A stretch of DNA of 62,934 bases from Candidatus Omnitrophota bacterium (lineage in GTDB: Bacteria > Omnitrophota > Gorgyraeia > Zapsychrales > Fredricksoniimonadaceae), in contig JADFZK010000012.1 in the NCBI GenBank assembly GCA_015232565.1, positions 1 through 62,934 of the forward strand, written 5' to 3'. The notes below the pieces were generated by a model that was not told where the DNA came from, did not search any database, and saw nothing but the letters and a program-made list of their open reading frames with translations. Position numbers and translations under genes: made by a program. This document shows, piece by piece, positions 6,093-62,934 of the stretch. Within the stretch, counting starts at the first letter, position 1; each line of letters opens with the position of its first letter.

Positions 6093-7386
6093 AAGCCTGC
6101 TGGCCGGGATCCGTTCACGTAAAGCGCGTATAGCCGTAATTGGCCTGGGTTATGTGGGCCTGCCGCTGGCTTTGGGGTTTGCCGCCCGGGGTTTTAAAAC
6201 TTACGGGATCGACACTAATCCGGTGCGTGTTAAAAAGTTGCTGGACGGCGAAAGCTTTATCACTGATGTTACGGATGCGGCAATAGCCGGGCCGGTCAAG
6301 AAGGGCTTGTTCGTGCCGTCTTTGGACGAGGCTCTTATTGGCGCTTGTCAGGTGGCGATCATTTGTGTGCCGACTCCTATTAAACGCCGGTATACTCCGG
6401 ATATCTCCTTTATAATCTCTGCAGTGCGGGCGGTGACCCGTAATCTGGCCAAAGGTACCCTGGTGGTACTGGAAAGCACTACTTATCCGGGCACTACCGA
6501 GGAGCTTATTTTGCCCGAACTGGAAAAGAGCGGGCTGAAAGCAGGCAAGGATTTCTTTCTGGCTTTCTCGCCGGAACGTGTTGATCCGGGTAATGCCAGC
6601 CATAGCGTTACGCAGATCCCCAAGGTGGTGGGCGGCCTGACCCCGGCGTGTAATGAGGTGACGGCGGCGCTTTACGGGAGCATTATCAAGCAGATCCATT
6701 TGGTTTCTTCCCCGCGAGCGGCCGAGATGACCAAACTGCTGGAGAACACTTTCCGGCTGATCAATATCGGCTGGGTTAATGAAGCGGCCATGATGTGCCA
6801 GGCCTTCAAGATCGATGTATGGGAGGCTATTGATGCGGCCGGCACCAAGCCGTTCGGCTTTATGCCTTTTTATCCCGGGCTGGGCGTGGGCGGGCATTGT
6901 ATCCCTGAGGACCCGATCTATCTGTACTGGAAAGCCAAACAGCATGGTTATGCTTCGCGGTTCATCAAGCTGTCGGCTGATATCAATTCGGCCATGCCGG
7001 GGTATGCGGCGGAGCGTATTGGCGCTATCCTCAAGAAGCGCGGAAAAAAGTTGTCCGGCGCGCGGGTACTGGTGCTGGGCGTAACATATAAGAAAGACGT
7101 CAAAGACCTGCGCAAATCGCCATCGGTCAAGCTTATCGAGGTTCTGCGCCGGCAGGGGGCTGAGGTTTCTTTTTATGATCCGTTGATACCGTTTTTGAAT
7201 ATCGACGGGTTACAGATGGAGGGTGCGGCGTTTAGTCCCAGGATATTGGCCGCGCAGGATTGTGTGGCAGTGGCGGTGGATCACTCAAAAGTGGACTACG
7301 CTCTGGTGTTAAAACACGCCCGGGCGGTCTTCGATATAAGGAATGTGTACCGCGGTAAAGTTTCGCCCAAGATCACCAGGCTGTAG
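6085..7386 (+). CDS. Nucleotide-sugar dehydrogenase (WbpA/TviB/WecC-type UDP-GlcNAc/ManNAc 6-dehydrogenase)
   Basis: IGLGYVGLPLA, ESTTYPGTTEE, FSPERVDPGN, KLLENTFR, GVGGHCIP, GVTYKKDVKDLR. Confidence 0.9.
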   Translation: MRKSLLAGIRSRKARIAVIGLGYVGLPLALGFAARGFKTYGIDTNPVRVKKLLDGESFITDVTDAAIAGPVKKGLFVPSLDEALIGACQVAIICVPTPIKRRYTPDISFIISAVRAVTRNLAKGTLVVLESTTYPGTTEELILPELEKSGLKAGKDFFLAFSPERVDPGNASHSVTQIPKVVGGLTPACNEVTAALYGSIIKQIHLVSSPRAAEMTKLLENTFRLINIGWVNEAAMMCQAFKIDVWEAIDAAGTKPFGFMPFYPGLGVGGHCIPEDPIYLYWKAKQHGYASRFIKLSADINSAMPGYAAERIGAILKKRGKKLSGARVLVLGVTYKKDVKDLRKSPSVKLIEVLRRQGAEVSFYDPLIPFLNIDGLQMEGAAFSPRILAAQDCVAVAVDHSKVDYALVLKHARAVFDIRNVYRGKVSPKITRL

Positions 7387-7543
7387 TGTGGTGATTTGAA
7401 TATTTTTTTACATTTGAATCACCACACTGGAGCAATGGAGCAATCGAAAATGGAGAAATAATAAAACATTTGGCTCCATTGCGGTCTATTTTCGATTTTC
7501 TATTGCTCTGCAAATGTAAGGAAGCGTTAGACGCACCATACTG
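7384..7543. mobile_element. 160-bp MITE-like element, copy 1
   Basis: Reverse complement matches 61894-62053 over its full 160 bp; ~10-bp imperfect TIRs (TAGTGTGGTG ... CACCATACTG); internal 12-bp IR AGTGTGGTGATT/AATCACCACACT with 20-nt spacer. Confidence 0.75.
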
Positions 7544-7619
7544 GCGGGGTGATTTATCAGGCTCACCATATTAGTGTTGAGCATTTTTTGCAGAATGTGT
7601 TTATATAAAGGGATATAAA

Positions 7620-29544: not shown

Positions 29545-30291
29545 ATGGCATCCGAAAAACGAAATTATCTGCTGGAGCAAGTGGTGGCGGTGGTGGTCTC
29601 CGGGCCGCAGGGCAAGGTCCTCGACCTGGGATGCGGGAATGGCCGGACTGGTAAAATGATAGCCGACCGCGGTTTTCCGGTTGAAGCGTGCGATATGGAT
29701 TCCGACCGGTTCGAGTTCCATAATGTGATCCCCTTCCGGCAGGGCAATCTGGACAGCCGCCTGCCTTATGATGATCAGACCTTTGACTGTGTGATATTGA
29801 TGGAAGTCATCGAGCATGTGTATAATCCCGGCTTCGTGATCGGCGAGATCAGCCGCATTCTGAAACCCGGCGGCCGGCTGGTCTTGTCGACGCCGAACAT
29901 TCTTAATATCAGCTCAAGGTTAAGGTTTTTGTTTGAAGGCAGTTTTGATTTCTTCCGCGAACCCACGCTGGATTACGCCAAATGTTTTCCGGTGGCGATC
30001 CAGAATATGCACGTTATTCCCTGGCGGTATCAGGACCTGGAATATTTGCTGGCCCGTAACGGCCTGGAGGCCGGGCGGGTCCTGGCCGACAAGAGAAAAA
30101 TGGCATTGTTGTTCCCTTTGTTACTGGTTATGCCGATGATCCTGATCCAGAGTTTGACCAAGGTGACCCGGGGCCGGGCGAAGGGCGGAGTGGATTATGT
30201 GCGGATGAGCACGATATTATTGTCCCCGGACATGTTGCTGGGCCGACACCTGATCGTAGAAAGCATCAAAAAAGCGCCGGCTATTCCATAA
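29545..30291 (+). CDS. Class I SAM-dependent methyltransferase
   Basis: VLDLGCGNG, EVIEHV, LKPGGRLVLSTPN. Confidence 0.88.
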   Translation: MASEKRNYLLEQVVAVVVSGPQGKVLDLGCGNGRTGKMIADRGFPVEACDMDSDRFEFHNVIPFRQGNLDSRLPYDDQTFDCVILMEVIEHVYNPGFVIGEISRILKPGGRLVLSTPNILNISSRLRFLFEGSFDFFREPTLDYAKCFPVAIQNMHVIPWRYQDLEYLLARNGLEAGRVLADKRKMALLFPLLLVMPMILIQSLTKVTRGRAKGGVDYVRMSTILLSPDMLLGRHLIVESIKKAPAIP

Positions 30292-30331
30292 GGCAATGTA
30301 AATTTAATTTTGCCCGGGTTAATTACCGCAG

Positions 30332-30387
30332 TTGACAGCCAAACTTTTTCGTAGTACACTCCGAATTGGTCAGACTAATTCGTAGCG
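30332..30387 (+). promoter_or_regulatory. Near-consensus sigma70 promoter plus downstream palindrome; direct-repeat copy 1
   Basis: TTGACA-17nt-TACACT followed by CGAATT-N9-AATTCG; 49/56 identical to 31628-31683. Confidence 0.75.
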
Positions 30388-30395
30388 AGGTACAT

Positions 30396-31553
30396 ATGGA
30401 AAACATCGTTCGCACGCTTAAGATCAAGCTTCCTCCCAGGCAATCTGCATTTTTGTGGGGGCCGCGCAAGACGGGAAAGTCTACATTCCTGAAGCAGGCC
30501 TTTCCGGACAGCCTGGTCTATGATCTGTTGCAGAAAGATCTTTATTTGGAAGTAGTCAAGAATCCTTCGGTATTGCGTGAGCGGATCCTGGCCAAAGACC
30601 CGGCGCTTTTGAAGTTTCCCATTATTCTGGATGAAGTGCAGAAGGTCCCCGAACTGCTGGATGAAGTGCATTGGATGATCGAGAACAAGGGCCTGCAGTT
30701 CGTTATGTGTGGTTCCAGCGCCCGCAAGTTAAAGCGCGGTCAGGCCAATCTTTTGGGCGGCCGGGCCTGGCGGTTTGAATTATTCCCGCTGGTTTCGGCT
30801 GAACTGGAACATTTCGACCTTAAAAGGGTGCTTAACCACGGTCTTTTGCCGTCTCATTATTTGCAGGACAATGCCGCGCGGTCGATCCGGGCGTATGTGC
30901 AGGATTATCTTAAGGAAGAAGTTTTTGAAGAGGGTATCGTGCGGAGTATTCCGGCGTTCTCGCGCTTTTTCGATGCCATGTCGTATTCCCTGGGCGAGAT
31001 CGTTAATTATTCCAACATCTCCCGGGATTGCGGAGTGGGCTCCAAGACGGTAAAAGAATATTATCAGATCCTGGTGGATATGTTGCTGGGGTCTTTTGTT
31101 GAACCGTATAAGAAGCGCCAGAGCCGGAGCGTTATCCTTAAAGCCCCCAAATTCTATTTCTTCGATGTGGGCGTGGCGGCGGCTATTGCCCGGCGTCCGG
31201 TCCTCGAGGAGCGAGGAGAATTCTTTGGCCGGGCTTTGGAAAACCTGATCTTTATGGAGTTAAATGCGTATCGGAGTTATAAAGAGCGGGACTTCGAGAT
31301 AAATTACTGGCGGACCAAGTCGGGCATCGAGGTTGATTTTATCCTGAATGATGGCCAGGTGGCAATAGAGGTTAAAGGCGCCGCCAGAGTGGACGGGGCG
31401 GAGTTAACGGGCTTAAAGGCTTTTATTGATGAATATAAGCCGCAGAAGGCGATCGTGGTCAGTAATGAGCGGGAATCACGGGTGGCGGGTGATATTCGAA
31501 TAATGCCCTGGCGGGATTTCCTTGCCCGGTTGTGGCTTGGAGAAATTGTTTAG
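30396..31553 (+). CDS. COG1373-type AAA+ ATPase (AAA_14 + DUF4143)
   Basis: GPRKTGKS, ILDEVQK, CGSS, KFYFFDVG, C-terminal EVDFIL...IEVK; GAGG RBS before ATG 30396. Confidence 0.88.
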   Translation: MENIVRTLKIKLPPRQSAFLWGPRKTGKSTFLKQAFPDSLVYDLLQKDLYLEVVKNPSVLRERILAKDPALLKFPIILDEVQKVPELLDEVHWMIENKGLQFVMCGSSARKLKRGQANLLGGRAWRFELFPLVSAELEHFDLKRVLNHGLLPSHYLQDNAARSIRAYVQDYLKEEVFEEGIVRSIPAFSRFFDAMSYSLGEIVNYSNISRDCGVGSKTVKEYYQILVDMLLGSFVEPYKKRQSRSVILKAPKFYFFDVGVAAAIARRPVLEERGEFFGRALENLIFMELNAYRSYKERDFEINYWRTKSGIEVDFILNDGQVAIEVKGAARVDGAELTGLKAFIDEYKPQKAIVVSNERESRVAGDIRIMPWRDFLARLWLGEIV

Positions 31554-31627
31554 GCGTGTGTGTTATTTGGAGTTGGCAATTCCATTAAACAGTGTAGATT
31601 GGAGTTTGTTCGGGCAAATTACAATGT

Positions 31628-31683
31628 TTGAGAGCCAAACTTTTTCGTAGCATACTCCGAAATAGTCAGACCAATTCGGAGCG
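31628..31683 (+). promoter_or_regulatory. Direct-repeat copy 2 of the promoter block, upstream of GT4 gene
   Basis: TTGAGA-17nt-CATACT with identical spacer GCCAAACTTTTTCGTAG. Confidence 0.65.
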
Positions 31684-31762
31684 CACTCCGGGATAGTTAG
31701 ACAAGATTTATGTAGATGGAGTTAATGTTATTCATGGAATTATTAACTAAGAGGGGTTTTTA

Positions 31763-42788: not shown

Positions 42789-43208
42789 ATGTTGAACCTG
42801 CCGATCAGTGAGATCATGAACGACCATCCTATCAAGGTTAAGTCGGATGTGACGGTGCGGAATGTGGCGCATTTGTTATTGCGCATCCGCATTAACGGGA
42901 TCCTGGTGATGGATGTTAATGAACCCGATAAATTGATCGGGGTTTTTACCATGCGGGACCTTTTGCATTTGATGGGCGATTCCCTGGCCAAACGCAGTCA
43001 GAAAATGCAGGCCTTGCACGACGTGGGCGGCCAACCGGTGGGTAATTTCATCAAGGACGAACTGTTAACCCTCGAGGCCAGCGACAATGCCGCCAAAGCA
43101 GTGGCGCTGATGCACAAGAAAGACGCCATTACCATTCCGGTCATGGCCAACGGCAAACTGGTAGGAGTGATCGGCCGGCACGATATAATCAATATAGCTT
43201 TTGCCTAA
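42789..43208 (+). CDS. CBS domain-pair protein
   Basis: ISEIM...VLVM...LIGVFTMRDLL and IPVMANGKLVGVIGRHDII. Confidence 0.85.
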   Translation: MLNLPISEIMNDHPIKVKSDVTVRNVAHLLLRIRINGILVMDVNEPDKLIGVFTMRDLLHLMGDSLAKRSQKMQALHDVGGQPVGNFIKDELLTLEASDNAAKAVALMHKKDAITIPVMANGKLVGVIGRHDIINIAFA

Positions 43209-43234: not shown

Positions 43235-43440
43235 GACGTCGCCCAATGCTATGCCAACCGGGGGACATGATGCCCCGCCGCGGACAGCAATGAGCGGGGC
43301 TTCGTGTCCCCCCTAAAGGGGCCAGGGCCAAGCCGCCTGACAACCCCTCTACCAACGAATGTGAAAGCGACCCAGGTCTCAACCCCAACGCCAAACGCCC
43401 CAAACAACGCCAAACACCCCCAAACACCCCCAAACACCCC
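43235..43440. repeat. Palindromic repeat element, intergenic copy with (CAAACACCCC)n tail
   Basis: Matches 44241-44385 and 62867-62934; hairpin GGGACATGATGCCCCGC/GCGGGGCTTCGTGTCCC; three exact CAAACACCCC units at 43411-43440. Confidence 0.8.
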
Positions 43441-43599
43441 ATACGTCTATATATTTAAATTAATACCACAGACCACAGCGACGGAGCGAGAAACTGTTTC
43501 TCGTTTTCTTTCCGCCCCCTTGATTTTCTCCATAATATATTCAATACTTGGCAAAAGAGCCTCGGTGTTTTGGGGTCTGGCAATTTTATAAAGGCGGAA

Positions 43600-46500
43600 A
43601 TGCGCAAGATCATTGTATTTATAACTTTGCTGTGTTTTATGTTCACCGGGAGCGGTGTGCCCGTGGTTCTTGGTGCGCAGGGTAATGTTTTGCCTGCGCC
43701 CGGCCAGATCATGCAATTAAGCCCCGAGTTCCGTCCCGCTGTACTAAAAGGCCTGAAAGTTTATCCGAACTCACCTTTGCGCCTGGACTTTATTGAGGAC
43801 TCCGGTGATCATCGTGAACTGGCGGGGGAGGAAGGTGCGCTGGCCCGCAAGAACGAATCGGCCCGGCTGGTGCAGTATTTTCTGGCCGCTTTGACTACTC
43901 CCGAGAAAGACCTGTGGGTTAATTTGTCGCCGTATGAAGCCGAGCGGATAATTCCGGAGGCCTTCGGCCAGACGGCCATGGGGCGGGATCTGCTGGAGCA
44001 GGATAATGTGCTTAAGCAGATAACCGCGTCTTTGCTTTATCCCGAAGGAGACACGGGCAAGGTCTTCTGGCAGAAAGTGTATGCCGCGGCATACGCTAAA
44101 TATGGCACCACCGACATGCCGTTCGATACCTTCAACAAAGTCTGGATCGTACCACAATATGCGAAAGTTTATGAGCATGGTGACACCGCCTTCATAGTGA
44201 ATGCCAAATTAAAATTAATGCTGGAGAAAGACTATTTAGCGACGTCGACCAATGCTATGCCAACCCTGGGACATGATGCCCCGCCAGCGGATACCAATGA
44301 GCGGGGCTTCGTGTCCCAAAGCCGGCTGCCAACCCCTCAACCAACGAATGTGAAAGCAACCCAGGTCTCAACCCCAACGCCCAACCACCCAAGTGCCCCA
44401 AGTACCCCAAACCAACAAAACGACATTGCCCGGGACGTCCTGCGCGAGGTTGTGATCCCGGTACTGGAACATGAGGTTAATGAGGGCGCTAATTTTGCCC
44501 CTTTGCGTCAGGTGTACGCCTCGCTGATCCTGGCCCTGTGGTACAAACAGCGCATGAGGCACGACCTCCTGGGCCGGGAATATGCCGACCGGAATAAAGT
44601 TTCCGGCATCGAGATCGGGGAGAAAGACGCTAAATCCCGGGTTTATCAAAGCTATCTGCAGGCTTTTCGGCAGGGTGTTTATAACTACATAAAAGAAGAG
44701 GCCGATCCGGGTACCGGTGAGATTATTCCGCGCAAATATTTCTCCGGCGGGTTTCTGGTTCCTACGGGCTTTAACATTGACCTGGACGCCAGTGCGGCCG
44801 GCAATGATATGCGCGTAAAAGCCGGCCAGCTTCTGGTAGTTGATCTGGGGACCGATAACGGTCCGGGCGTTGAGGAACAACCGGCAAGAGCCGCACGATC
44901 GCTAAGGCCCTGGGGTCTCATCAGGCGGGTAAGGTCCGGCAAAGAGACGGCTGAGCAGCGCGATAATGCCGCGTTCTCGGAAGAGGCCTTGACGCATCCT
45001 TTGGCCAAGGAAATTTACGGCAAGATAAAAGAAGCGGTGGGCGGGTTGGCGCAAGATGCTTTGGTGAAAGGTCCGCTGGCGGATCTGCAGGAGTTGTTTC
45101 AGTCTATGACGGACAATGAGTGGCGTTTGCTGGCAGGTGTGCCGGATTATTTTCGGGAGCATTTATATTCCAGCGATTCTGTTCCGCAGGATGTTTCTGC
45201 GGATGGTGTTGCTCTGGACCTGAGAACGCTATTGGAGGCTATGGGGACTGCTTTTGACCGGCTGACGACCTTGGAGAATTCGGGGGTATTCTCTGGCGAG
45301 ATACAGGCTTTCTTCGACCGGAATGTGGCGTTAGATGTTTATGTGCGGGCAGAAGACCTTGAGCAGGAAGTAATGCATGCCGGACGACGTATTCTGGGCA
45401 TGTATGTTAAAGGCAAGATCAATTTAGCGGAAGCCGAGCTATTGCTTCAGGAATGGACCAATAAGCTTTACCGGAATCGTCAGCAACTAGGCGCTGTTTT
45501 ACAAGCTCTGGATCTGCCGGGAACTTCGGTTACTAAAGAGATCCGCCAGCTTACGGTGCGAGTATTGGGGTTTGCCGATGAAAAACAGATAATTATTGCT
45601 CCGAGTGTATCCGGTTTGGCCTGGTTCTTGTGGTCGGGCTTGGATATTGATCATAAGCATCAGGGAAGCGCTTTTAGCCTGATGGATGAACAGGGAAGGA
45701 GTGTGCCGGTTGCGGTGGTGGCGGGTGATCAAAGGCCTTTTCATTTAGCCAGGGTCATAATTCATGAGGCATCCCATATGGAGTCGGATAAAAGAGAGGA
45801 AATGAATACGGAATTTGAGCGTGTTTTAAATGAGGGTTTTCAGGCCTACCGGGAATATGCTATTTGGAAAAAGGTCATGGAAGCGGCAGGTGAGGACTTG
45901 AGGGTCAATATGCTTGAGATGATCAATGCCGAGTATAAGGTAAAAACTGCTGGTCAGAGTGGCTATCCAATTGTGCGAATAGCTTTGTCTAAACTTGCTG
46001 TGTTATTGCAGAATACTTCCTATGTATGGGAGAACAGGATCGTGCGGCAGCTCTTGACGTTTATTATTCAGAAGCCGCAAATAAGCCTTGAGGGAGGAGC
46101 GGACAACCCGGAGCTTAAGGCGGTCTTTTTGAAAAGAGATTTTGGAAGATTGCGCGCCGCACTGGGGCCTAACCGGTTTGAGGTTATAAGTTCTATTGTT
46201 AATCGCTGGGCACCTGCGGTGTCGAGTAATGGCGGCATAAGGAGCTTTGTGATGAGTGAATGGGTGTTAAGTTCGGCGTTGTTGGTCCCGGGCGAAGATG
46301 TTTCTGAGGAAATAGCCGCCAAAATATCTAAAGTCAGAATGGTTTTAGGTGAGGAATTCAATTCGCCCAAGGTTCCTTTTAAAGGACCGTATGTAGTAGA
46401 TAAAGTAAAGTGGCCGGCGGATCTGGTGAAGGAATTTGTGGCGGTAACCAGCCGCTATCTGACCGATGAGATTACATTGGACCAATGTCGGGCATTGTTC

Positions 46501-46776
46501 GTGCAGATCCGGGACCGGTCCCAGGCGGCCGATCCTTCGGCGGTTGCTGGCCAGCCGGGCGCCCTGGACAGTGCGGCCGATATGCGTTTGGAGAAAGGCG
46601 GTATCGACTTCTCCGCGGAGCGTACCAGGCTGGACGTGAGTTCTGACCCTGCCGGGAGTGGCCGGTTATTCAACCCGGAGGCTTTACCGGAGGTTGGAAT
46701 CGACCGTCTTTACATCAAGAGTATTAACGTCCGTCCTTTGGTAAATCTGCCGCAAATGTTAGGCCTGCCGGGATAA
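43600..46776 (+). CDS. Modular exported protein A (conserved N-domain + gluzincin-like cargo + GGID C-module)
   Basis: Signal-like N-terminus; LWVNLSPYE, MGRDLLEQD, FNKVWIVP, IPRKYFSGG; HEASH-x18-E (LNEGF); GGIDF. Confidence 0.85.
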   Translation: MRKIIVFITLLCFMFTGSGVPVVLGAQGNVLPAPGQIMQLSPEFRPAVLKGLKVYPNSPLRLDFIEDSGDHRELAGEEGALARKNESARLVQYFLAALTTPEKDLWVNLSPYEAERIIPEAFGQTAMGRDLLEQDNVLKQITASLLYPEGDTGKVFWQKVYAAAYAKYGTTDMPFDTFNKVWIVPQYAKVYEHGDTAFIVNAKLKLMLEKDYLATSTNAMPTLGHDAPPADTNERGFVSQSRLPTPQPTNVKATQVSTPTPNHPSAPSTPNQQNDIARDVLREVVIPVLEHEVNEGANFAPLRQVYASLILALWYKQRMRHDLLGREYADRNKVSGIEIGEKDAKSRVYQSYLQAFRQGVYNYIKEEADPGTGEIIPRKYFSGGFLVPTGFNIDLDASAAGNDMRVKAGQLLVVDLGTDNGPGVEEQPARAARSLRPWGLIRRVRSGKETAEQRDNAAFSEEALTHPLAKEIYGKIKEAVGGLAQDALVKGPLADLQELFQSMTDNEWRLLAGVPDYFREHLYSSDSVPQDVSADGVALDLRTLLEAMGTAFDRLTTLENSGVFSGEIQAFFDRNVALDVYVRAEDLEQEVMHAGRRILGMYVKGKINLAEAELLLQEWTNKLYRNRQQLGAVLQALDLPGTSVTKEIRQLTVRVLGFADEKQIIIAPSVSGLAWFLWSGLDIDHKHQGSAFSLMDEQGRSVPVAVVAGDQRPFHLARVIIHEASHMESDKREEMNTEFERVLNEGFQAYREYAIWKKVMEAAGEDLRVNMLEMINAEYKVKTAGQSGYPIVRIALSKLAVLLQNTSYVWENRIVRQLLTFIIQKPQISLEGGADNPELKAVFLKRDFGRLRAALGPNRFEVISSIVNRWAPAVSSNGGIRSFVMSEWVLSSALLVPGEDVSEEIAAKISKVRMVLGEEFNSPKVPFKGPYVVDKVKWPADLVKEFVAVTSRYLTDEITLDQCRALFVQIRDRSQAADPSAVAGQPGALDSAADMRLEKGGIDFSAERTRLDVSSDPAGSGRLFNPEALPEVGIDRLYIKSINVRPLVNLPQMLGLPG
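44241..44415 (+). repeat. Palindromic repeat element inserted in frame in protein A
   Basis: Encodes ATSTNAMPTLGHDAPPADTNERG...PTNVKATQVSTPTPN, absent from paralogues B and C. Confidence 0.8.
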
Positions 46777-46837: not shown

Positions 46838-46902
46838 TTTTGCCCCAAACGCCCTTCTCAAATGCCATTTTGTAGTAAATACTTGTTACGGGAGTGGATA
46901 CT

Positions 46903-49900
46903 ATGGCTAAACGGACGTTAAGGTCACAGGGTGCTTTTGATCCGGATCGTTTTATTGCCAGATCCGGTTTTGATCGGCTGCGTTTTGCCCGGCTGGTCCT
47001 GGGTTGGCTTTTTCTTTTTCAGGCTTTTTGTCCGCCTGGTTTGGCCGGAGCGGCTGGTGTGCCGGCGCTGACTTTGCCGGCAGTTACCCTGGCCGGGGGC
47101 GTAAAGCCGTTTGAACCTTGTCGGCTTAAGGGCCTGCGCATTCATCAGGACAATGCTTTTCGCCTGGACTTCCTTATTGATACCGGCAGTTCCACAGCGC
47201 CCAATGATATTAACGAAGAGAAAATATCCCGGCAGGTGCGCTATTTTATGGCGGCGCTGACCATGCCTCAGCGCGAGCAGTGGGTGAACCTATCCCCGTA
47301 TGAGCAGGAACGGATAATGCCGGAAGCTTTTTCCCTTACCGAAATGGGCCGTGATCTGCTGGAACAGGATTATTTGCTTAAAAAGATCACCGCGTCCTTG
47401 CATGATCCCAAGAGTGAGGCCGGCAAGATCTTTTGGCAGAAAGTTTATGCCCGGGTCTTTGACAAGTATGGCACTACCGATATCCCGCTGGATACTTTTA
47501 ACAAGGTCTGGATAGTGCCGGACCTGGCGGTGGTCGAGGAAAAAGGATTTGTGGCTGTTATTAAGGAAAGCCACCTGAAGGTCCTGCTGGAAACAGATTA
47601 CGTCAAGCTGGGCCTGGGCGGAGCCGTAAACCATCCGGAAGAAAATATTGCTGACCTTACGCCCGGCATTGTGCGCGATGTGGCACGCGAGGTGCTTATT
47701 CCCATGATCGAGGAAGAAGTGAACCGCGGTGCGGCGTTTGCTCTTTTGCGTCAGGTGTATAGTTCTATGATCCTGGCGGTTTGGTATAAGGAAGTGATGT
47801 TGCAGAGGCTTCTGGGTCGGGATTATGTGGATCGGCAGAAAGTGAGTGGGATAGACCAGGTCGAGCCCGAGGCCAAGCAGGCGATCTATGAGCGTTATAT
47901 AGAATTATTTAAAAAAGGCGTGGTGAACATGGTGCAGGAGGAATACGACCCGTTTACCAGCGAGATGATTCCGCGCAAGTATTTCTCCGGCGGTTTTGAT
48001 CCATCCCAAATGTCATTAAAACGTATAGCCGCTTCGGCGCTGTCTTTGGGGTTGGTGGGGGCGGCTTTAGTGGCGCGCTTTGATTTAAGTTCGCAAAAAT
48101 CCGGCCAGAGCGGGCCGGCAGCTAAGCCGGCATCGGTAGCGTCGGTAACAAATATGCCGGCCATGACTCCGGAACAGGAGCGTCAGGTAGAAGTTTTTCA
48201 TGATGAGTTGTTAAAGATGCAGGGTGATGTACGGGCCATCGATTGGGGGCGGGATATTATTCTCCGTCCGGGGGTGGCGCCGCAGTACAAGGTGATAGCG
48301 TTCAAGATGTTGTGTGCTGTTATCCTTTCCCAGTCGGAAAGCATTAGCGGGGTGGGTGGTAAAATGCTGGGGCCGATCGAGGCGCTGGACGATAGTATCA
48401 GTCGGCAGGCTTTGGCCCGGGTGATGGATATCCTGGCGCGTAACGACCCGTTATTGTATGAACACGCCACGGAACATGTTGTTTACGTGATGCAATATCT
48501 TCATGATAATAACCCGGCGCTGTTGCGGTCATTTTTTGAGAAGATCGAGCTTAAGAATGTGGTGCATTTGATAGCCAAAGGCAACGGGCTCTACGCGATG
48601 GATTTCCGGACTACTTACAAATTGTATCATGACAGCCTGCAAAAATGGACTCGCTTGAACGGGACGCGGACACTGGGAGTGGAAGAATTCCTGAATAGCG
48701 TGGGCCTGCAGGGCATGGACATGGTGCCTTTTGTGGCCAATCTGGCGGCGTATGGATATTTGGATGATCTGATAAGCGACTCTCCGCTGGTTTTTGTGAA
48801 GGCCTTGCCGGGTTTGTGTTCCAAAGCGAACGAGAAAAGTTTTATCCTCGCCGCTCCGGCTTTGCAGAAAATGCTGCGTACGGAACGGGACGGGCGGATA
48901 AAAGGGATCCTTTGGCAGGTTTATGCCCGTTTGGGAACCAATGTGCCGGAAGCATTAAAGCAATTTATGCGCCTGAATGCGGACGTGTTCTTTGCCGGCG
49001 CGCCGGTGAAAGAGCGCACCGGACCGCTGGCCGAAATACAAGCCGGGGTGTCCCAGGCCGAGCTGGATTCGTTCCAGAAGGTGCCGTACTGGCAGATAGT
49101 AAATAAAGGGGTAATAAATGTCGGGGTGGCTTTTCAGGAATCTTCTTTGGCATATATCGAGCTGTTGAAGAAGCAAATGATAGCGCAGGGCTTCTCGGTG
49201 ACCCCGGGAAAGAAAAAACAGCAGTTCGAGGCGCGCTGGAAAGGCAAGATGTATTCCCTGCGGGTGATAGTGGGCAATGTGGATACTATTGTTGATTCAG
49301 AGCGGGCCGGTGTGTCGTTTGGCGTTGTATCTGCGCGGGGGCATTCTACCGAGATCAAGGATACAATGGAGGCGCTGTTTGGGCTTAAGAATGAGCGCGT
49401 TTTTGTTGGGGCGCCGGGGTCTTGCGCCAGCCGAAAGGTTTTGTATGATCTGTTGCATTCTTATCCCAATTCCCAATGGATAGTGCGTTCGGGACCAGAT
49501 AATGGTAATGACGCCAATTATTTGCTGGCGGGAACAAGCAAACGGAAGGGGGTCTTGCAAGCCCTGGCCGATGGGGTTCCAACATGGAAAGCCGCCAGTG
49601 AACAGTATTTGCCGCAGAACAGGTTTTCGTCGTATACGGATCCGGTGGCTTATTTGACCAGCCAGGCCAATAGCAAAGCGCCTTTGCCGCGTCTGTTGAC
49701 TGCTAATAATTATCCTTCAGACCATGGCCAGCTGACCCCCGGTGGTATCGACCTTAATCCGGCGACCCTGGCTCTTCAGCGGCAGGGTAATCTGAATTCT
49801 GCCGAGATCAGTCCGGCCATGGATAATGCCATGAATGTAGAAAGTTTGTACCCGGTCATGGTGGAAATGTACCCGCTGGGCGCGCAGTCTTTCGGGCAGA

Positions 49901-49908
49901 ATCCATGA
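46903..49908 (+). CDS. Modular exported protein B (conserved N-domain + putative His/Cys peptidase-like cargo + GGID C-module)
   Basis: GGAG RBS; TM/signal; WVNLSPYE, MGRDLLEQDY, FNKVWIVP, IPRKYFSGG; ARGHS...PGSCAS; GGIDL. Confidence 0.85.
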   Translation: MAKRTLRSQGAFDPDRFIARSGFDRLRFARLVLGWLFLFQAFCPPGLAGAAGVPALTLPAVTLAGGVKPFEPCRLKGLRIHQDNAFRLDFLIDTGSSTAPNDINEEKISRQVRYFMAALTMPQREQWVNLSPYEQERIMPEAFSLTEMGRDLLEQDYLLKKITASLHDPKSEAGKIFWQKVYARVFDKYGTTDIPLDTFNKVWIVPDLAVVEEKGFVAVIKESHLKVLLETDYVKLGLGGAVNHPEENIADLTPGIVRDVAREVLIPMIEEEVNRGAAFALLRQVYSSMILAVWYKEVMLQRLLGRDYVDRQKVSGIDQVEPEAKQAIYERYIELFKKGVVNMVQEEYDPFTSEMIPRKYFSGGFDPSQMSLKRIAASALSLGLVGAALVARFDLSSQKSGQSGPAAKPASVASVTNMPAMTPEQERQVEVFHDELLKMQGDVRAIDWGRDIILRPGVAPQYKVIAFKMLCAVILSQSESISGVGGKMLGPIEALDDSISRQALARVMDILARNDPLLYEHATEHVVYVMQYLHDNNPALLRSFFEKIELKNVVHLIAKGNGLYAMDFRTTYKLYHDSLQKWTRLNGTRTLGVEEFLNSVGLQGMDMVPFVANLAAYGYLDDLISDSPLVFVKALPGLCSKANEKSFILAAPALQKMLRTERDGRIKGILWQVYARLGTNVPEALKQFMRLNADVFFAGAPVKERTGPLAEIQAGVSQAELDSFQKVPYWQIVNKGVINVGVAFQESSLAYIELLKKQMIAQGFSVTPGKKKQQFEARWKGKMYSLRVIVGNVDTIVDSERAGVSFGVVSARGHSTEIKDTMEALFGLKNERVFVGAPGSCASRKVLYDLLHSYPNSQWIVRSGPDNGNDANYLLAGTSKRKGVLQALADGVPTWKAASEQYLPQNRFSSYTDPVAYLTSQANSKAPLPRLLTANNYPSDHGQLTPGGIDLNPATLALQRQGNLNSAEISPAMDNAMNVESLYPVMVEMYPLGAQSFGQNP

Positions 49909-50015: not shown

Positions 50016-53000
50016 ATGGACACAATTAAACGCTTTATTGCTGTATTAATTTTGGTGCCGTTTTTGCTGACCACGGTTACTCCGGTGGCAATGTCGGCGG
50101 ACTTGCCCTGGATGCCCCAGCCGGGCGCTATGGTGGGTTTGAGCGCGCCTTTTGTGCCGGCTCATCTTTGGGGCATGACCATCAAGCCCAATGAGCCTTT
50201 TAAGTTCGATTTTCTGGTTAAAAAAGGCGATGTGCTTCTTAATGAGGAGCAGAAACGAAGTGAATATTCCCGGCTCATCAAGTATTTCCTGGCCGCCCTG
50301 GCCATTCCGGATACCGATCAATGGGTGAACCTTTCGCCGTATGAACAAAACCGGATCGTTCCTGACAATTTCGGCCTTACCGAGATGGGCCGTGATCTTT
50401 TGGCGCAGGATTATCTGTTAAAACAGCTTTCTTCGTCTCTGACCGATCCGGGCAGTGAGTTGGGCCAGAAGTTTTGGGCTAATGTGTATGAGGAAGCTCA
50501 TAAGCGTTTCGGTACCACCGATGTGCCCGCCGATATGTATAGCAAGGTTTGGATAACTCCCGACAAAGCGGTGGTTTATGAAAAGAATAATACTGTTTAT
50601 ATACTGGAAAGTCATTTGAAGGTCATGACCGAGCAAGATTACCTGGCTGCTCAGCACAATAGCGCGGTCTCGCCGGCGGTCGTGCCCGATTCCCAGGCCA
50701 GGGAGTTGGCCGATATTTCTTCCCGGGTCTTGAAAGAGGTGATCATTCCCGCTATTGAGAAAGAAGTGAACGAGGGCAAAAGTTTTGCGCCTTTACGGCA
50801 GGTTTACAGCGGGATGCTTTTGGCTACCTGGTACAAGAAGGCCTTGAAAGAGTCAATTCTGGGCAAGCTATACGCCGACCGGAGTAAAGTTAAGGGCGTC
50901 GACCAGGATCCCCGTGCCAACCAGGAAATTTACGGCAAGTATGTTGAAGCGTTCAAAAAAGGCGTCTTTAACCTGATAAAAGAAGATGTGGACCGCAATA
51001 CCCAGGAAGTAATTCCGCGGAAGTATTTTTCCGGTGGATTTGACAATGCTTCGGCGGCGGTTATGAGCAAGGCAGACAATGTTGCGATAGTTGATCAAGC
51101 GCTTTCTAACGCCAGAGGAGGAAACACCGAGGTCGTGGAAGCCGATCTGGCGCGGGCCAATCAATTGGAGTGGAAGAGGCTTTACGGACGGCTTAATGGG
51201 TTAACGCCAGGCTCCAGGGTGAGTTTTAATTATGAAATGAAATACGGAACAGGAGAGACTGCGAGCGCTAAAGTTTCTGGTCAGGTGGTGGCTATTAATC
51301 CGGATAATGCTTTGCAGTTGAGAGTGACGAAAAGGGGTTCAAAGAGAACGGAATTGGAATGGTATAATTTCAGTAGAATTCAAGATAGTGTTTTGACTTT
51401 TGGAGTTCCCGGAGCGTCAGACGTGCCTAATGTGCCAGCCTCTGCAAATGACGGAGCGGCGGCGGTGTCGTTGTCGGACCGAATGATGGATGTGCCCCCG
51501 AGGGTTACAGTAATATCGGAAGCCATTCGTATTTTCAAGCGGTTGCCGGGTGCGCGTGGTTCGGACTTGAGCGTGGAGTTTCCTGCAAAATATAAGGGAG
51601 TTACGATTGAAGATGTTGGCGGCGTTTCGTACCTGATGTGGCGTAATAAAAAAGGAATACCGGAGAGGCTGGGGCAAGTTAAGTTTGGAAGATACGATAC
51701 TGAGGTTCATTCATATGTTCCCGATATGCTTTTAAGCGCCAGATTAAACAGGTCGGTTAAAAGCCGGGTTTTGTTGTCTGGGCAGGGAAGTCCGCTTAGG
51801 AAGACTTTGGCGCAACAGTGGTTAATGGAGCCGCAGGTATTGAAAAATGATGAGCCGATCGAGCACCGTTTGGGAGTAACGAAAGGACAGGGCGTGCGGT
51901 ATCTTTTTGAACTTCCTCCTGGCTATACGGATGGGAGAGTTCAACACGAGGATGATAAAGAATACATTATGGCCACCGATCCGCGGGGTATTCGCCGGAC
52001 CATGGGCTGGATAAGTGCTCATTTGGGGTCGGTGGAGGCGGTGCATTCCAATGTTAATGGCTTGCTTTGGGCGGCCCGGGCTAATGATACCGGCAAGACC
52101 AGTTTTAGCGTTCTGCCCAGCATGTTTGATAGAGATGAGAGGTCGTTAAAAAAGAGGCTTGCTCAGGAGTGGTTGTTTGAGCCGAAGTGGTATATTATGA
52201 ATGATGGTTATTCTGATCTACGGGTTGGAAAAGAAATTGTGGAGCAGATAGTTGAGCTTCCTTTGGGTTATTCCGACGGACGCATTGATATTAATGAATT
52301 TAATCTGCCTGTTGTGAGCGCGCGTTACAAAGGCGGCAAGCGTAGCGTCGTGGCTATATTTGAGTCTGGGGACATAATCAAGTTTAAGTCTATGATCGCT
52401 CACCTTGTTGTGGCGGCCAGAATTGTTAAGACCGGCAAGAGCCGGGTAGTTTTGGCTGGTAAAGATCGTCCATTAAGTCAGAGGATGTCCAGGGAGTGGC
52501 ATACGGAGCCGCAACAGGTTGGCTCGAATAAGACTGAGTGGGTTGCCACAAGAGTGCGCAGATGGCCAGGGATTGAGGTAGTGATTGAGGTTCCGGACTT
52601 ATATAGCGAACCGTTTCTAGTTAGCAACAAAAGCTTGGAAGGCGGATCATTTATCAAAGCATATAACAAGGCGGGAAGAATTGTTCCTTTGGGTCGGATC
52701 AACCTTACACGAACCAAACATCTTATGGTGCATTCATATGTTGAAGGCTTGATTTTTGCGATCAAGGATACTACTGAAACCAAGAATGTTAATGTGGTTT
52801 TGCAGTCCAGCGATAAGGCCGCGGGTGATGCAGATGCGGCAGTCACGACGGTGGCCGCCAAGGCGCCTACCGGCGGTATCGACCTGGCGCAATCCGCTTT
52901 GAGTATGCAGATCAAACGCGACGGGGCGGGCGTACCCCTGCCGGTCAGTCAGCAAGACCTGGACAGTATTCATATCGAAGGCCTGGTACCGGTGATCACC

Positions 53001-53048
53001 GGCATCCGGTCGGCCGTCAACGCGCCGCAGTTCTCGGCCTTGCCGTAA
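50016..53048 (+). CDS. Modular exported protein C (conserved N-domain + 4x ~112-aa repeat cargo + GGID C-module)
   Basis: Signal peptide; WVNLSPYE, MGRDLLAQDY, KVWITP, IPRKYFSGG; internal repeats; GGIDL. Confidence 0.85.
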   Translation: MDTIKRFIAVLILVPFLLTTVTPVAMSADLPWMPQPGAMVGLSAPFVPAHLWGMTIKPNEPFKFDFLVKKGDVLLNEEQKRSEYSRLIKYFLAALAIPDTDQWVNLSPYEQNRIVPDNFGLTEMGRDLLAQDYLLKQLSSSLTDPGSELGQKFWANVYEEAHKRFGTTDVPADMYSKVWITPDKAVVYEKNNTVYILESHLKVMTEQDYLAAQHNSAVSPAVVPDSQARELADISSRVLKEVIIPAIEKEVNEGKSFAPLRQVYSGMLLATWYKKALKESILGKLYADRSKVKGVDQDPRANQEIYGKYVEAFKKGVFNLIKEDVDRNTQEVIPRKYFSGGFDNASAAVMSKADNVAIVDQALSNARGGNTEVVEADLARANQLEWKRLYGRLNGLTPGSRVSFNYEMKYGTGETASAKVSGQVVAINPDNALQLRVTKRGSKRTELEWYNFSRIQDSVLTFGVPGASDVPNVPASANDGAAAVSLSDRMMDVPPRVTVISEAIRIFKRLPGARGSDLSVEFPAKYKGVTIEDVGGVSYLMWRNKKGIPERLGQVKFGRYDTEVHSYVPDMLLSARLNRSVKSRVLLSGQGSPLRKTLAQQWLMEPQVLKNDEPIEHRLGVTKGQGVRYLFELPPGYTDGRVQHEDDKEYIMATDPRGIRRTMGWISAHLGSVEAVHSNVNGLLWAARANDTGKTSFSVLPSMFDRDERSLKKRLAQEWLFEPKWYIMNDGYSDLRVGKEIVEQIVELPLGYSDGRIDINEFNLPVVSARYKGGKRSVVAIFESGDIIKFKSMIAHLVVAARIVKTGKSRVVLAGKDRPLSQRMSREWHTEPQQVGSNKTEWVATRVRRWPGIEVVIEVPDLYSEPFLVSNKSLEGGSFIKAYNKAGRIVPLGRINLTRTKHLMVHSYVEGLIFAIKDTTETKNVNVVLQSSDKAAGDADAAVTTVAAKAPTGGIDLAQSALSMQIKRDGAGVPLPVSQQDLDSIHIEGLVPVITGIRSAVNAPQFSALP

Positions 53049-59766: not shown

Positions 59767-61901
59767 AGATCCGCGGGCATATTCCGCTTTGCTTATTGGG
59801 CGCGGTCTTTGCCCTTTGGACCGCCCTGCACTGGAGTAGTTTTACCGGCAAAGCTTTTTTCTCCGGGGACAACGGGCAATATTTCTACTGGTTGACTTAC
59901 CATTTCGATAATTTAACCCGCGGCGTGTATCCGTTCTGGAACCCTTTCCATGCCTGGGGCTCGGTAGATAATTTCGATGTGCGCTTTCTGGGCGAATTCA
60001 ATCCGTTCTACTGGATCATTCCGTTCCTGGGCTTGTTCCGGGTTTCTGCCGCGGCGGGTTTTCAGGCTTTTATTATTTTGTATTTCTTCCTGGGCTGTTT
60101 GGGCTTCTTTGCCCTGGCGCGCAAGTTGTGCCGCAACGATGGTTTGGCGGTATTGGCCTGTGCCATGCTGTTATTCTCCGCTTTGGGTGAAAGGGTGTTC
60201 ACGCAATTGGCCGTACTTATAACTTTGGTGCCGGCCATCTGGTTCTTTAATGAACTGACGGGTTTTTATCAGGAGGCGGATGGCAAGTTTCAGATCCGCC
60301 GTATATTGGGCTTGTTTTTTTGGACCATGATCATGGCGGTGAGTTATATACCGTTCTTTTTTATTCTGGTCATGCTGGCTTTTCTGGCGGGTTTGTTAAT
60401 ATTCAACCGGAAAGTATTTCCGTTGTTCTTTGGCAAGTTGATCGCTTTCGTCCGGCGGTATCCGTTGATAATCCTGGCCGGGGTGTTAAGTTTGTCGGCG
60501 GCATTGGTGCCGGTCACCCGCTGGTATCTGGCTTCGCGAGACAGCCAGTATGTCCTGCTGGTGGACCGCGCCGAGGTGGCCTCGGCCGACAAGGCGCGGG
60601 TGCCGTTGAGCGGCATAAATGCGGGCAGTTTGTGTGTGGTCACCTCCTGGCCCGAATGGTTTGCCGACCTGGATATTACCCAGCAGACATTTTCTTATGT
60701 AACCAACTTTCTGGTGGTTTTATTGATCCTGGTCGTGGCTACTCGCTGCGCTCCTGCCCAAAGGGTGGTCTTTCTTACCGGCCTGCTGGTTTTTATGGTG
60801 GGAGCGGCGGATGTTTTTCCGTTACATCAGTTTCTTTATGATCATGTGTATATGTTTCAATTGTTCCGGAATTATTATTTTCTCTGGCCGTTCGTCATAG
60901 CGATATTTATTTTGTTCGCCGTCGGCCAGCTGAAGGTCTGGCTGGACGGGCATAAGCCGGCCGGAAGAAGCCGCTGGTTATTCCTGGCTCTTATATTGTT
61001 GGTACACCTGGCTTTAGGCGCGCTACTTTGGGCTGGTGACGGCATTGTGCTTACTTCGTACATTATGCTCGCGCTGAGTGCCCTGGTGTTTAGCGGTTAT
61101 GTTCTGGGCTGGTATGGGCAAGGAAATTGGCTTACTTTCGGGCTTTTGGCGGCCGCTCTGGTTCAGCCTTGTCAGGTACTGCCGGGTTTTCGGATACTGG
61201 CCGATCCGCCCAGGGAGTGGGGTATTCATGAAGCGAAATTCTCGTATGTGCGGCCACGGCCGGGAACGGGTTTTAATGAAGACCACGGTTTCCATTCCCG
61301 CACCAAAATAATGCAGGACGAATCCGGTTTTGTAAAAGCCGGGTACATGGGAGTGAAATATTCTTACGACCTTTCCCAGCATTTGCCTTCGGAGGCGCTG
61401 GCTCCATATGTAAAGAACAAATTTGTGCTGTATAAGGGCGTGAGTTTTCTGGACCCCAATTCTGGCGACTGGGGACGGGTGGAGGCGGTGTTAAGTGGCG
61501 CGCGCGGCTCGGCCCTGGTGTACGACCGCCAGGCTTTACGGGCTGGCGCGAATTCGGGCGCGGCGCGGGTGGTTACCGGCCCGTCGGAGGATTTGCGGGT
61601 GACGGATTTTAATGTGAACGGCCTGACGGTGCAGACCGCGCTGGCCGAGCGGGCTTTTCTGGTTTATAACGACAGTTACCATAAAGACTGGCGGGCTACG
61701 CTGGATGGCCAGGATCTGCCGGTATATCGCGCTAACGCGGCTTTCAAAGGCGTCTGGGTGGAGCCCGGGCGGCATACTATTCGCTGGCAGTTCATGCCGG
61801 GGCCCTGGCAGGCTTTTTATTTGTTCCTGACCTTCCTGTTCGCCGCTTGGAGCGTGGTAGTCCTGCTGACGCGGTTTTCGGCACAGCGGTTGCTAGTGTA
61901 G
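59763..61901 (+). CDS. YfhO-like polytopic membrane protein (putative GT-C glycosyltransferase)
   Basis: YPFWNP after first TM; C-terminal LVYNDSYHKDWRA.LDG....YRAN.AFKGV....GRHTI typical of YfhO. Confidence 0.7.
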   Translation: MKIRGHIPLCLLGAVFALWTALHWSSFTGKAFFSGDNGQYFYWLTYHFDNLTRGVYPFWNPFHAWGSVDNFDVRFLGEFNPFYWIIPFLGLFRVSAAAGFQAFIILYFFLGCLGFFALARKLCRNDGLAVLACAMLLFSALGERVFTQLAVLITLVPAIWFFNELTGFYQEADGKFQIRRILGLFFWTMIMAVSYIPFFFILVMLAFLAGLLIFNRKVFPLFFGKLIAFVRRYPLIILAGVLSLSAALVPVTRWYLASRDSQYVLLVDRAEVASADKARVPLSGINAGSLCVVTSWPEWFADLDITQQTFSYVTNFLVVLLILVVATRCAPAQRVVFLTGLLVFMVGAADVFPLHQFLYDHVYMFQLFRNYYFLWPFVIAIFILFAVGQLKVWLDGHKPAGRSRWLFLALILLVHLALGALLWAGDGIVLTSYIMLALSALVFSGYVLGWYGQGNWLTFGLLAAALVQPCQVLPGFRILADPPREWGIHEAKFSYVRPRPGTGFNEDHGFHSRTKIMQDESGFVKAGYMGVKYSYDLSQHLPSEALAPYVKNKFVLYKGVSFLDPNSGDWGRVEAVLSGARGSALVYDRQALRAGANSGAARVVTGPSEDLRVTDFNVNGLTVQTALAERAFLVYNDSYHKDWRATLDGQDLPVYRANAAFKGVWVEPGRHTIRWQFMPGPWQAFYLFLTFLFAAWSVVVLLTRFSAQRLLV

Positions 61902-62053
61902 TGTCTCTAACGCTTCTTTAAATTTGAAGAGTAATGGAAAATTGAAAATAGACCGCAATGGAGCTAAATGTTTTATTATTTCTCCATTTTCGATTGCTCC
62001 ATTGCTCCAGTGTGGTGATTTAAGTGTAAAGAGATATATCAATCACCACACTA
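61894..62053. mobile_element. 160-bp MITE-like element, copy 2 (inverted relative to copy 1)
   Basis: Bounded by CTAG at both ends (61893-61896, 62051-62054); TIR TAGTGTAGTG...CACCACACTA; same internal IR and 20-nt spacer. Confidence 0.78.
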
Positions 62054-62162
62054 GATGGCTGTTGCCGGTGTCACAATATACGAGTGAAATGATAAAAACT
62101 GGCATAAAATGAGATCATAGTATATATTTGTGGTGCGATTATTAGCTGGCACCCAATTTACT

Positions 62163-62934
62163 ATGATTAAATATAGCTTGTTTACTATATGGCGCAGGGT
62201 GATTGCGTCTTTTGTGCTGGTGGCGTTCCTGGTTAGTAATGGAGCCTGTCCGGTGGCCTTTGTGCATGCGCAGGAAGTTTCGGTCGTAACTCAACCCGGC
62301 AGTCTGGTGGCGTTGAGCCCCGCTTTTACTCCGCCTTTGTTAAAGGGCATCAAGGTTTATCCTTCCGATCCGTTGCGTTTCGATTTTATTCTGGATAAAG
62401 GTGATCTGGCGGGCAATGGCCGCGACCGTTCATTGCCGGACGAATCTTTACGTCTGATCAAATATTTTCTCGCCTCCCTGACCATTTCCGAGAAAGACCT
62501 GTGGGTCAATTTAAGCCCTTATGAGAAAGAGCGTATTGTGCCCGCGGACTTTGGCCGCACCGCAATGGGCCGCGACCTGCTGGAGCAGGATTATCTGCTG
62601 AAACAGGTTACCGCGTCCTTGCTTTATCCGGAAGGTGAGACCGGCAAACTGTTCTGGCAGAAGGTTTACGCCGCCGCGTACCAGAAGTTCGGCAGTATTG
62701 ACATTCCGGTCGACATTTTTAACAAAGTATGGATCGTGCCCGCCAAGGCAGTTATTTACGAGCCGCCAGCCAAGCCGTCCAGCCCGGGAGAAAAAAACAA
62801 CCCGCCGCCCGGCGCCTATGTGCTACAAAGCCGCCTAAAAGTAATGCTGGAAGCCGATTATTTAGCGACGTCGACCAATGCTATGCCAACCAGGGGACAT
62901 GATGCCCCGCCAGCGGATCTCAATGAGCGGGGCT
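62163..62934 (+). CDS. Modular exported protein D, N-terminal part (3' truncated by window edge; missing from ORF track)
   Basis: Manual translation: MIKYSLFTIWRRVIASFVLVAFLVS...LLKGIKVYPSDPLRFDFILD...DLWVNLSPYEKERIVP...MGRDLLEQDY...FNKVWIVP...LKVMLEADYLATSTNAMPTRGHDAPPADLNERG. Confidence 0.85.
   Translation, partial: MIKYSLFTIWRRVIASFVLVAFLVSNGACPVAFVHAQEVSVVTQPGSLVALSPAFTPPLLKGIKVYPSDPLRFDFILDKGDLAGNGRDRSLPDESLRLIKYFLASLTISEKDLWVNLSPYEKERIVPADFGRTAMGRDLLEQDYLLKQVTASLLYPEGETGKLFWQKVYAAAYQKFGSIDIPVDIFNKVWIVPAKAVIYEPPAKPSSPGEKNNPPPGAYVLQSRLKVMLEADYLATSTNAMPTRGHDAPPADLNERG
62867..62934 (+). repeat. Palindromic repeat element in frame in protein D (truncated by window)
   Basis: 64/68 identical to 44241-44308. 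Confidence 0.8.

Follow-up and report, generated by a model that had tools for sequence, protein, structure and literature searches.

A probable dispersed palindromic repeat family of Omnitrophota, translated in frame within secreted and housekeeping proteins

Element copies in the window and in the host genome

The window, a 62,934-nucleotide stretch of contig JADFZK010000012.1 analysed at its full length, belongs to a metagenome-assembled genome (MAG) with HQL20_ locus tags and the label Candidatus Omnitrophica bacterium, and carries a hairpin-bearing DNA element in two genes and in one spacer. The host genes, A (43600–46776, + strand) and D (62130–62934, + strand, still open at the window end), are paralogues within an Omnitrophota family of secreted proteins with an N-domain, a cargo part and a GGID tail; two further paralogues, B (46894–49908) and C (50016–53048), lie between them. 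None of the four had a match in Pfam. Searching with residues 30–212 of A returned 2547 relatives at E < 1e-10; they derive from many MAGs and metagenomes and, among the 120 matches listed, are mostly 59–67% identical. A preliminary description of this DNA had pointed out that A is longer than B and C after a conserved DYL motif, as we also found: the distance from DYL to the next helix is ~61 residues in A versus ~21–27 in B and C, whose linkers are short and unrelated to the insert of A, while D begins like A.

The copy in gene A is translated in frame in the loop after DYL (loop S1) and extends on the + strand from the GACGTC of its left arm to 44395 (44241–44395). A covariance model built from copies of the element matched it at 44255–44395 (83.4 bits, E 1e-20), and it aligns with copies from other genomes. 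Within it lies an imperfect hairpin (44268–44317, + strand; arms 44268–44284 and 44301–44317) with one U.G pair and one U.U mismatch, for which computed folding of the hairpin alone gave -36.8 kcal/mol on the sense strand versus -33.0 on the antisense strand; RNA folding of the whole segment gave z = -3.0 versus shuffles. The insert closes with a variable C/A-rich tail (44396–44424, + strand), encoding HPSAPSTPNQQN, whose length varies among paralogues. A free, untranslated copy (43235–43406, + strand; 51.3 bits, E 6e-12) occupies the spacer between an open reading frame (ORF) of 139 codons (42789–43208) and gene A. Its hairpin spans 43262–43310 on the + strand (arms 43262–43278 and 43294–43310) and it ends in a + strand decamer tail, approximately (CAAACACCCC)n, at 43390–43441. 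With its tail (43235–43440) the free copy has a 1-nucleotide deletion in the loop and 18 extra nucleotides at about 43310–43327, and no family-gene sequence lies alongside it; a promoter and terminator scan around it found nothing. The copy in gene D (62867–62934, + strand, ended by the window end; 5' arm 62894–62910) sits at the same S1 site as in A. The hairpin arm GGGACATGATGCCCCGC occurs at 43262, 44268 and 62894 and its partner arm, with two mismatches, at 43294–43310 and 44301–44317, giving five arm matches in the window against 0.17 expected; the hairpin DNA reported earlier for A, D and the spacer at 43235 was thus borne out, with the same arms. Scanning the window with the covariance model returned the copies in A and in the spacer, and that in D as ended by the window end, and no others. 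A template and variable repeat pair of a diversity-generating retroelement was rejected as an explanation for the A and free copies, their mismatches not being adenine-specific; no search was made for a reverse transcriptase gene.

Silent sites were compared between A and D by codon alignment. Across 170 codons of flanking sequence, nucleotide identity was 67% and third-position identity 46%, and the same codon was used at 53% of identical residues; the best 23-codon window of the flank reached 84% and 65%, respectively. Over the 23 codons of the insert up to the window end, by contrast, nucleotide identity was 94%, third positions were identical at 23/23 and the same codon was used at 21/21 identical residues, so the synonymous-site check proposed in the preliminary description showed conservation inside the insert and not outside it. 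Using residues 210–278 of A as a query, we retrieved seven more proteins, all of them family members from this MAG with an identically placed insert; loop S1 holds the element in at least nine to ten paralogues of this genome. Compared with A as peptides, these same-genome paralogues had inserts 86–90% identical and flanking N-domains 52–58% identical. The closest relatives of A in other MAGs, P0012 and P0013, showed 65–70% identity in the domains and 64–69% in the inserts, which contain a different hairpin. The insert thus tracks the genome rather than the gene tree, a pattern of concerted evolution or recent spread inside one genome.

The S1 loop accommodates other repeats as well. In P0011, from the same MAG, the first half of the insert is swapped for another translated palindrome (..RPTRFARELAASGGDKLRPYAHE..SVGADLVSARQ..), joined to the 3' half of the element. 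Further palindrome types occur in this loop across the family, including RADTRSAPT/GADLVSAR and GLVPALDKGRPQGSPL, and in P0016, from an HQL22 MAG, the loop has grown to ~150 residues through tandem repeats of roughly SVNGGGSLLSADGQASMNVGGNVSSPSGPA.

Census, anatomy and reading frames

A profile of the insert peptide, compared with 1.84 billion representative proteins, gave 120 matches, mostly to family members and otherwise to unrelated proteins. A metagenome scan with two conserved blocks of the element yielded 92 stretches, and the covariance model, built from 92 copies, gave 113 matches in 806 kb of loci. (A metagenome pattern requiring both HQL20-type arms gave 0 matches although locus L002 carries it; the collection is incomplete.) After removal of duplicates 108 copies remained, of which 72 were in family genes, 21 in other genes, 15 intergenic and 0 antisense within a gene. 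Intragenic copies thus made up 86%, and about two thirds of all copies were in three loops of the one paralogous family: S0 near residue 80–125, S1 after DYL and S2 before an FKKG motif, with up to three copies per protein. Pfam assigned the non-family hosts that read the element in frame to 2-oxoacid dehydrogenase E2, SMC, ACPS and Aldolase_II, the last with a second domain resembling SCP2; gene-hosted copies occupy loops of the N-domain family, the linkers between domains in housekeeping enzymes, and a coiled-coil arm. At locus L008, for example, element DNA forms part of a linker in a pyruvate-dehydrogenase-type E2. E2 hosts carry the element in two different linkers, and one E2 gene has two copies, the linker-1 copy of which is absent in two orthologues.

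Free copies were also found elsewhere. Scanning reference-genome contigs, a collection evidently without the window's MAG, for the insert peptide identified one locus, L001 (Candidatus Omnitrophus sp.), where a free copy with no flanking family sequence separates a greA-like gene from a membrane-protein gene convergent to it. In Logan contigs from the two runs that hold L001, the second of which is possibly the same data filed twice, its core recurs on about 9–10 further contigs of similar depth and unlike flanks, and one stem pair shows a compensatory C-G to T-A change. Together with 15–18 copies in operon spacers and the unrelated hosts (E2, Aldolase_II, SMC and ACPS), these loci support the earlier proposal of a palindromic element that is translated in frame, like the Rickettsia palindromic elements (RPEs); they do not fit copies confined to one site by simple inheritance, with no extra identity and no free copies. 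Orthologous sites, namely the spacer between cysD-like and cysN-like genes and a domain junction of the aldolase-like protein, retain the element with a changed hairpin tip. At the former (L065/L075 7752–7870, L073 3166–3281), the element fills the spacer from the end of the cysD-like gene (..GGLETLRKEGYM*) to the start of the cysN-like GTPase (MNVVIVGHVDHGKST), and the hairpin tips of the copies in different lineages differ.

The element measures ~103–140 nucleotides in most genomes and ~150–190 in the subfamily of this genome, which has the additional GACGTC-led left arm. Its 5' part reads GCCAACC-N-GGGGACATG, followed by a variable, usually self-complementary tip and by CGTGTCCCCAAGC; after ~29 nucleotides the 3' part continues with GAAAGCA-N-CCCAGGGAAAC and a C/A-rich end. 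These blocks (GCCAACC-N-GGGGACATG ... CGTGTCCCCAAGC ... GAAAGCA-N-CCCAGGGAAAC) recur in family genes of L002, L003, L005, L006 and L007, from unrelated metagenomes. The search pattern itself required two of the conserved blocks, whose invariance is therefore partly built in; it imposed neither the left block nor the stem. Nine basal stem pairs are near-constant in the 92 copies, with few single changes, and the U.G pair is retained in 88/92; the invariant stem base, GGGGACAUG/CGUGUCCCC with the U.G pair, is asymmetric. The next two stem pairs covary (UA 49, GC 30, AU 8; CG 38, UA 36, AU 4), and beyond them the tips diverge into 48 distinct sequences in 90 copies, most of them self-complementary. 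Because of the conserved U.G pair, the hairpin is more stable in RNA of the sense strand in 84/89 copies (-23.0 versus -19.2 kcal/mol). Hairpin interiors vary among copies, one of which has the hairpin cleanly deleted; decayed and hairpin-deleted copies occur, as expected for a repeat family. The 92-copy alignment revealed no shared structure beyond the single hairpin, and Rfam returned no family at gathering score, its only matches being generic hairpins (miRNA) below threshold. A hammerhead or another ribozyme was dropped for want of a core motif and an Rfam match, and a frameshift stimulator for want of an upstream slippery site.

Host ORFs read the element in at least eight frame combinations, the left and middle anchors each being read in all three frames and the right anchor in two. 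The left anchor accordingly reads PTRGH, QPGDM or NQGT, the middle anchor VSPS, CPQA or VPKQ, and the right anchor KAPQGN or ESTPG; since the hosts use multiple frames, it is the DNA or RNA that is conserved, not the peptide. In an AlphaFold2 model of A residues 1–400 made with a 64-sequence alignment (mean predicted local distance difference test score, pLDDT, 73.9), residues 220–268 fall below 50 and have no secondary structure between confident helices at 209–218 and 272–295. We read the insert from this model as a predicted disordered loop, which favours the surface loop that the preliminary description had put forward for testing; the S2 region of A was also of low confidence. Gene-hosted copies persist where the host reads through them as a disordered stretch rich in Pro, Thr, Ser and Gln.

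All genic copies were in the sense orientation (93/93), and all spacer copies (18/18) lay between co-oriented genes, on the same strand as both neighbours. The left block of the spacer copies was mostly 2–10 nucleotides past the stop codon of unrelated upstream genes, with two farther away, and the next gene usually started within 2–74 nucleotides. Antisense frames were often free of stops (in 35–67 of 92 copies), and stop codons therefore do not account for the sense-only pattern. Other ORFs in the fetched loci were 90% co-oriented with the element, indicating a very strong gene-strand bias in these genomes; the long ORFs of the 63-kb window are likewise nearly all on the + strand. The sense-only pattern could also arise from a DNA mechanism specific to one replication strand if the antisense peptide was selected against.

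Origin of the element and comparison with known repeats

The segment in gene A is probably, at roughly 80%, one member of an Omnitrophota family of dispersed, non-autonomous repeats that carry a hairpin. The element is present in multiple copies in a strand-specific manner; its stem base is fixed, hosts translate through it in loops, copies within a genome are similar, and an orthologous gene may have or lack it. Its best reading is a strand-specific palindromic repeat family that is an analogue of RPEs and not a member of them. The silent-site match between A and D, and an insert that follows the genome, would result if copies were made or homogenised within the genome, whether through copy-and-paste or through gene conversion of one copy by another. 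A strand-specific enzyme may recognise the conserved, asymmetric stem base; a single-strand-DNA transposase of the HUH/Y1 type would be the leading candidate for it. Y1_Tnp (IS200/RAYT-like) genes occur on two element-bearing contigs (L072:5095–5769(-) and L094:189–884(+)).

Several observations weigh against a repeat family of this kind. Neither Y1_Tnp gene is flanked by a model match or a hairpin in the ~0.8 Mb searched; no mobilising enzyme is thus tied to the element and we assign none, and the check for a cognate RAYT/Y1 transposase proposed in the preliminary description turned up no linked gene. The element has no terminal inverted repeats, its ends (GCCAACC... and ...AAACMACC..CGMCWWAC) being direct rather than inverted, and the filled and empty E2 linkers align too divergently to resolve the junctions, a target-site duplication or an empty site. 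One free copy is known from this genome, a count that covers the window only. The element at S1 is old and common to many lineages, so the identity between A and D may reflect gene conversion rather than fresh insertion. Finally, the strict sense orientation, the docking 2–10 nucleotides after stops and the near-invariant blocks are tidier than expected of purely selfish, decaying DNA.

It is also conceivable that the element, rather than being merely selfish DNA, functions as a signal at the RNA level or coupled to transcription, a cis-acting hairpin with a C/A-rich tail under selection in mRNAs, which might serve as operon or domain "punctuation" (mRNA processing, stability, ribosome pausing or termination) or as a docking site for a factor that binds RNA or single-stranded DNA. 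The uniform orientation of genic (93/93) and spacer (18/18) copies is consistent with such a signal, as are a bias not due to stops, given stop-free antisense frames in 35–67 of 92 copies, the U.G pair that stabilises the sense-strand RNA hairpin in 84/89 copies, spacer copies that start 2–10 nucleotides past the stops of unrelated genes, the retention of the element at orthologous sites while its tip differs, and blocks that are near-invariant in distant genomes, though two of these were forced by the search pattern. On the other hand, the hosts (secreted proteins, E2, SMC, aldolase and ACPS) have no common function, no Rfam family matches and no consensus structure extends past the one hairpin. 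The orientation itself is less telling where 90% of other ORFs are co-oriented anyway, and a replication-strand-specific DNA transposon combined with selection against a Cys/Trp/Leu-rich antisense peptide could yield the same bias, while template-switch mutation can maintain palindromic tips without selection. We regard an RNA-level signal as unlikely, if worth weighing, and such a role can be compatible with a mobile origin. The preliminary description had offered an RPE-like element in a different phylum or a nucleotide-level signal built into the gene family; the former is upheld, and the latter keeps a tentative place because every copy is sense. A more far-reaching reading, of an active, strand-aware system instead of passive DNA, is doubtful: a dedicated enzyme or RNA-binding factor would recognise the GGGGACAUG/CGUGUCCCC stem base on the transcript or on transcribed single-stranded DNA, insert the element sense-only after stops or in linkers and swap tips in situ, and the element would "punctuate" the mRNAs of operons and multi-domain genes by affecting their processing, stability or pausing.

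Two explanations confined to the protein family fare far worse. The copies in the window, two in paralogues at one site and one just 5' of A, together with the old and widespread occupancy of S1 in the A-like subfamily and the evident homogenisation within the genome, are what would be expected of an ordinary lineage-specific linker, duplicated and homogenised by gene conversion, with the spacer copy as a stray gene fragment. This is very improbable, however, given that E2, aldolase-like, SMC and ACPS genes contain the same DNA in frame and operon spacers of other genomes contain it too, that it occupies three different loops of the family and is read in different frames, and that the spacer copies of the window and of L001 lack flanking family sequence. 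Scarcely credible is an insert selected at the protein level as a peptide module, be it a protease site, a stretch for glycosylation or an epitope for binding, with an incidental hairpin: the GHDAPPADTNERGFVSP..NVKATQVSTPTPN peptide is indeed 86–90% conserved within this genome, but one DNA gives different peptides at the left, middle and right anchors, silent sites are frozen between A and D, untranslated copies exist and the region is predicted to be disordered.

A repeat family remains our preferred reading, and RPEs are its closest counterpart. RPEs (Ogata et al. 2000, Science 290:347, as summarised in PMC10969869) are dispersed palindromic repeats of ~100–150 bp found between genes and, with unusual frequency, in frame in unrelated genes, and the Omnitrophota element shares these properties. 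In both cases the added peptide falls where the protein fold can accommodate it, and neither has a known transposase. Each RPE family, however, encodes one conserved peptide (PMC10969869), whereas the Omnitrophota element is read in at least eight frame combinations. The Omnitrophota element further differs in being sense-only, docked just past stops and built on a constant stem base whose tip is hypervariable; three loops of one huge paralogous family house about two thirds of its copies. Its hosts are Omnitrophota and not Rickettsiales. Against membership of the RPEs stand its reading in several frames, its restriction to the sense orientation and the different phylum. Small non-autonomous repeats such as ERIC, BOX, Correia/NEMIS and the MITEs of Anabaena (miniature transposable elements with inverted repeats) can also fuse in frame with host ORFs (PMC10969869). 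Terminal inverted repeats and target-site duplications are the defining traits of MITEs, and a classical MITE was rejected because the element has no terminal inverted repeats.

The element also resembles repetitive extragenic palindromes (REPs) and their composites, the bacterial interspersed mosaic elements (BIMEs) and REP doublets forming hairpins (REPINs), in its imperfect hairpin with a conserved stem, its strand asymmetry, its high copy number per genome and its siting after operon stops, and in that Y1_Tnp genes are present in element-bearing organisms. REPs are 20–40 nucleotides long, carry a 5' GTAG-type tag and are extragenic, and RAYTs are Y1 HUH transposases; on these systems, see Nunvar 2010 and Bertels & Rainey 2011. 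The Omnitrophota element, in contrast, is a composite of 100–190 nucleotides with a conserved non-palindromic tail of ~60 nucleotides and is mostly intragenic; its size, tail and location mean that it is not a typical REP. A link to RAYTs was dropped, the two Y1_Tnp genes being without flanking copies. Full-text literature searches pairing Omnitrophica or Omnitrophota with palindromic or repeat elements brought up nothing relevant, and no publication describing the element was found.

Protein-coding palindromes are a textbook curiosity known mainly from Rickettsia. The Omnitrophota element adds an independent and abundant case from a free-living or predatory candidate phylum, with features not known for RPEs: multi-frame reading, all copies in sense orientation, and a fixed recognition stem with a fast-changing tip. 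It accounts for much of the loop-length variation in a very large Omnitrophota secreted-protein family, as well as odd low-complexity inserts in housekeeping genes (E2, SMC and aldolase-like) that annotators and structure predictors would otherwise misread. It also offers a tractable system for studying how repeat DNA turns into protein sequence and whether such hairpins act at the RNA level.

Other repeats and recombinase genes

A second, unrelated hairpin repeat (CCAGTGTGGTGATT...AATCACCACACTGG) occurs twice in the window, at 7380–7545 and 61892–62055. Its copies form 162-nucleotide inverted arms, 88% complementary and 54 kb apart, one lying just 5' of gene D and the other past an ORF that ends at 7386. 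Elsewhere in the window, an ORF at 30366–31553 is flanked by 109-nucleotide direct repeats (30279–30387 and 31575–31698; 77% identical) and by 44-nucleotide inverted repeats. At L003 (17697–21005) and L004 (13701–16901), three tandem tyrosine-recombinase (Phage_integrase) genes lie immediately 3' of a 1164-residue gene, near a family member.

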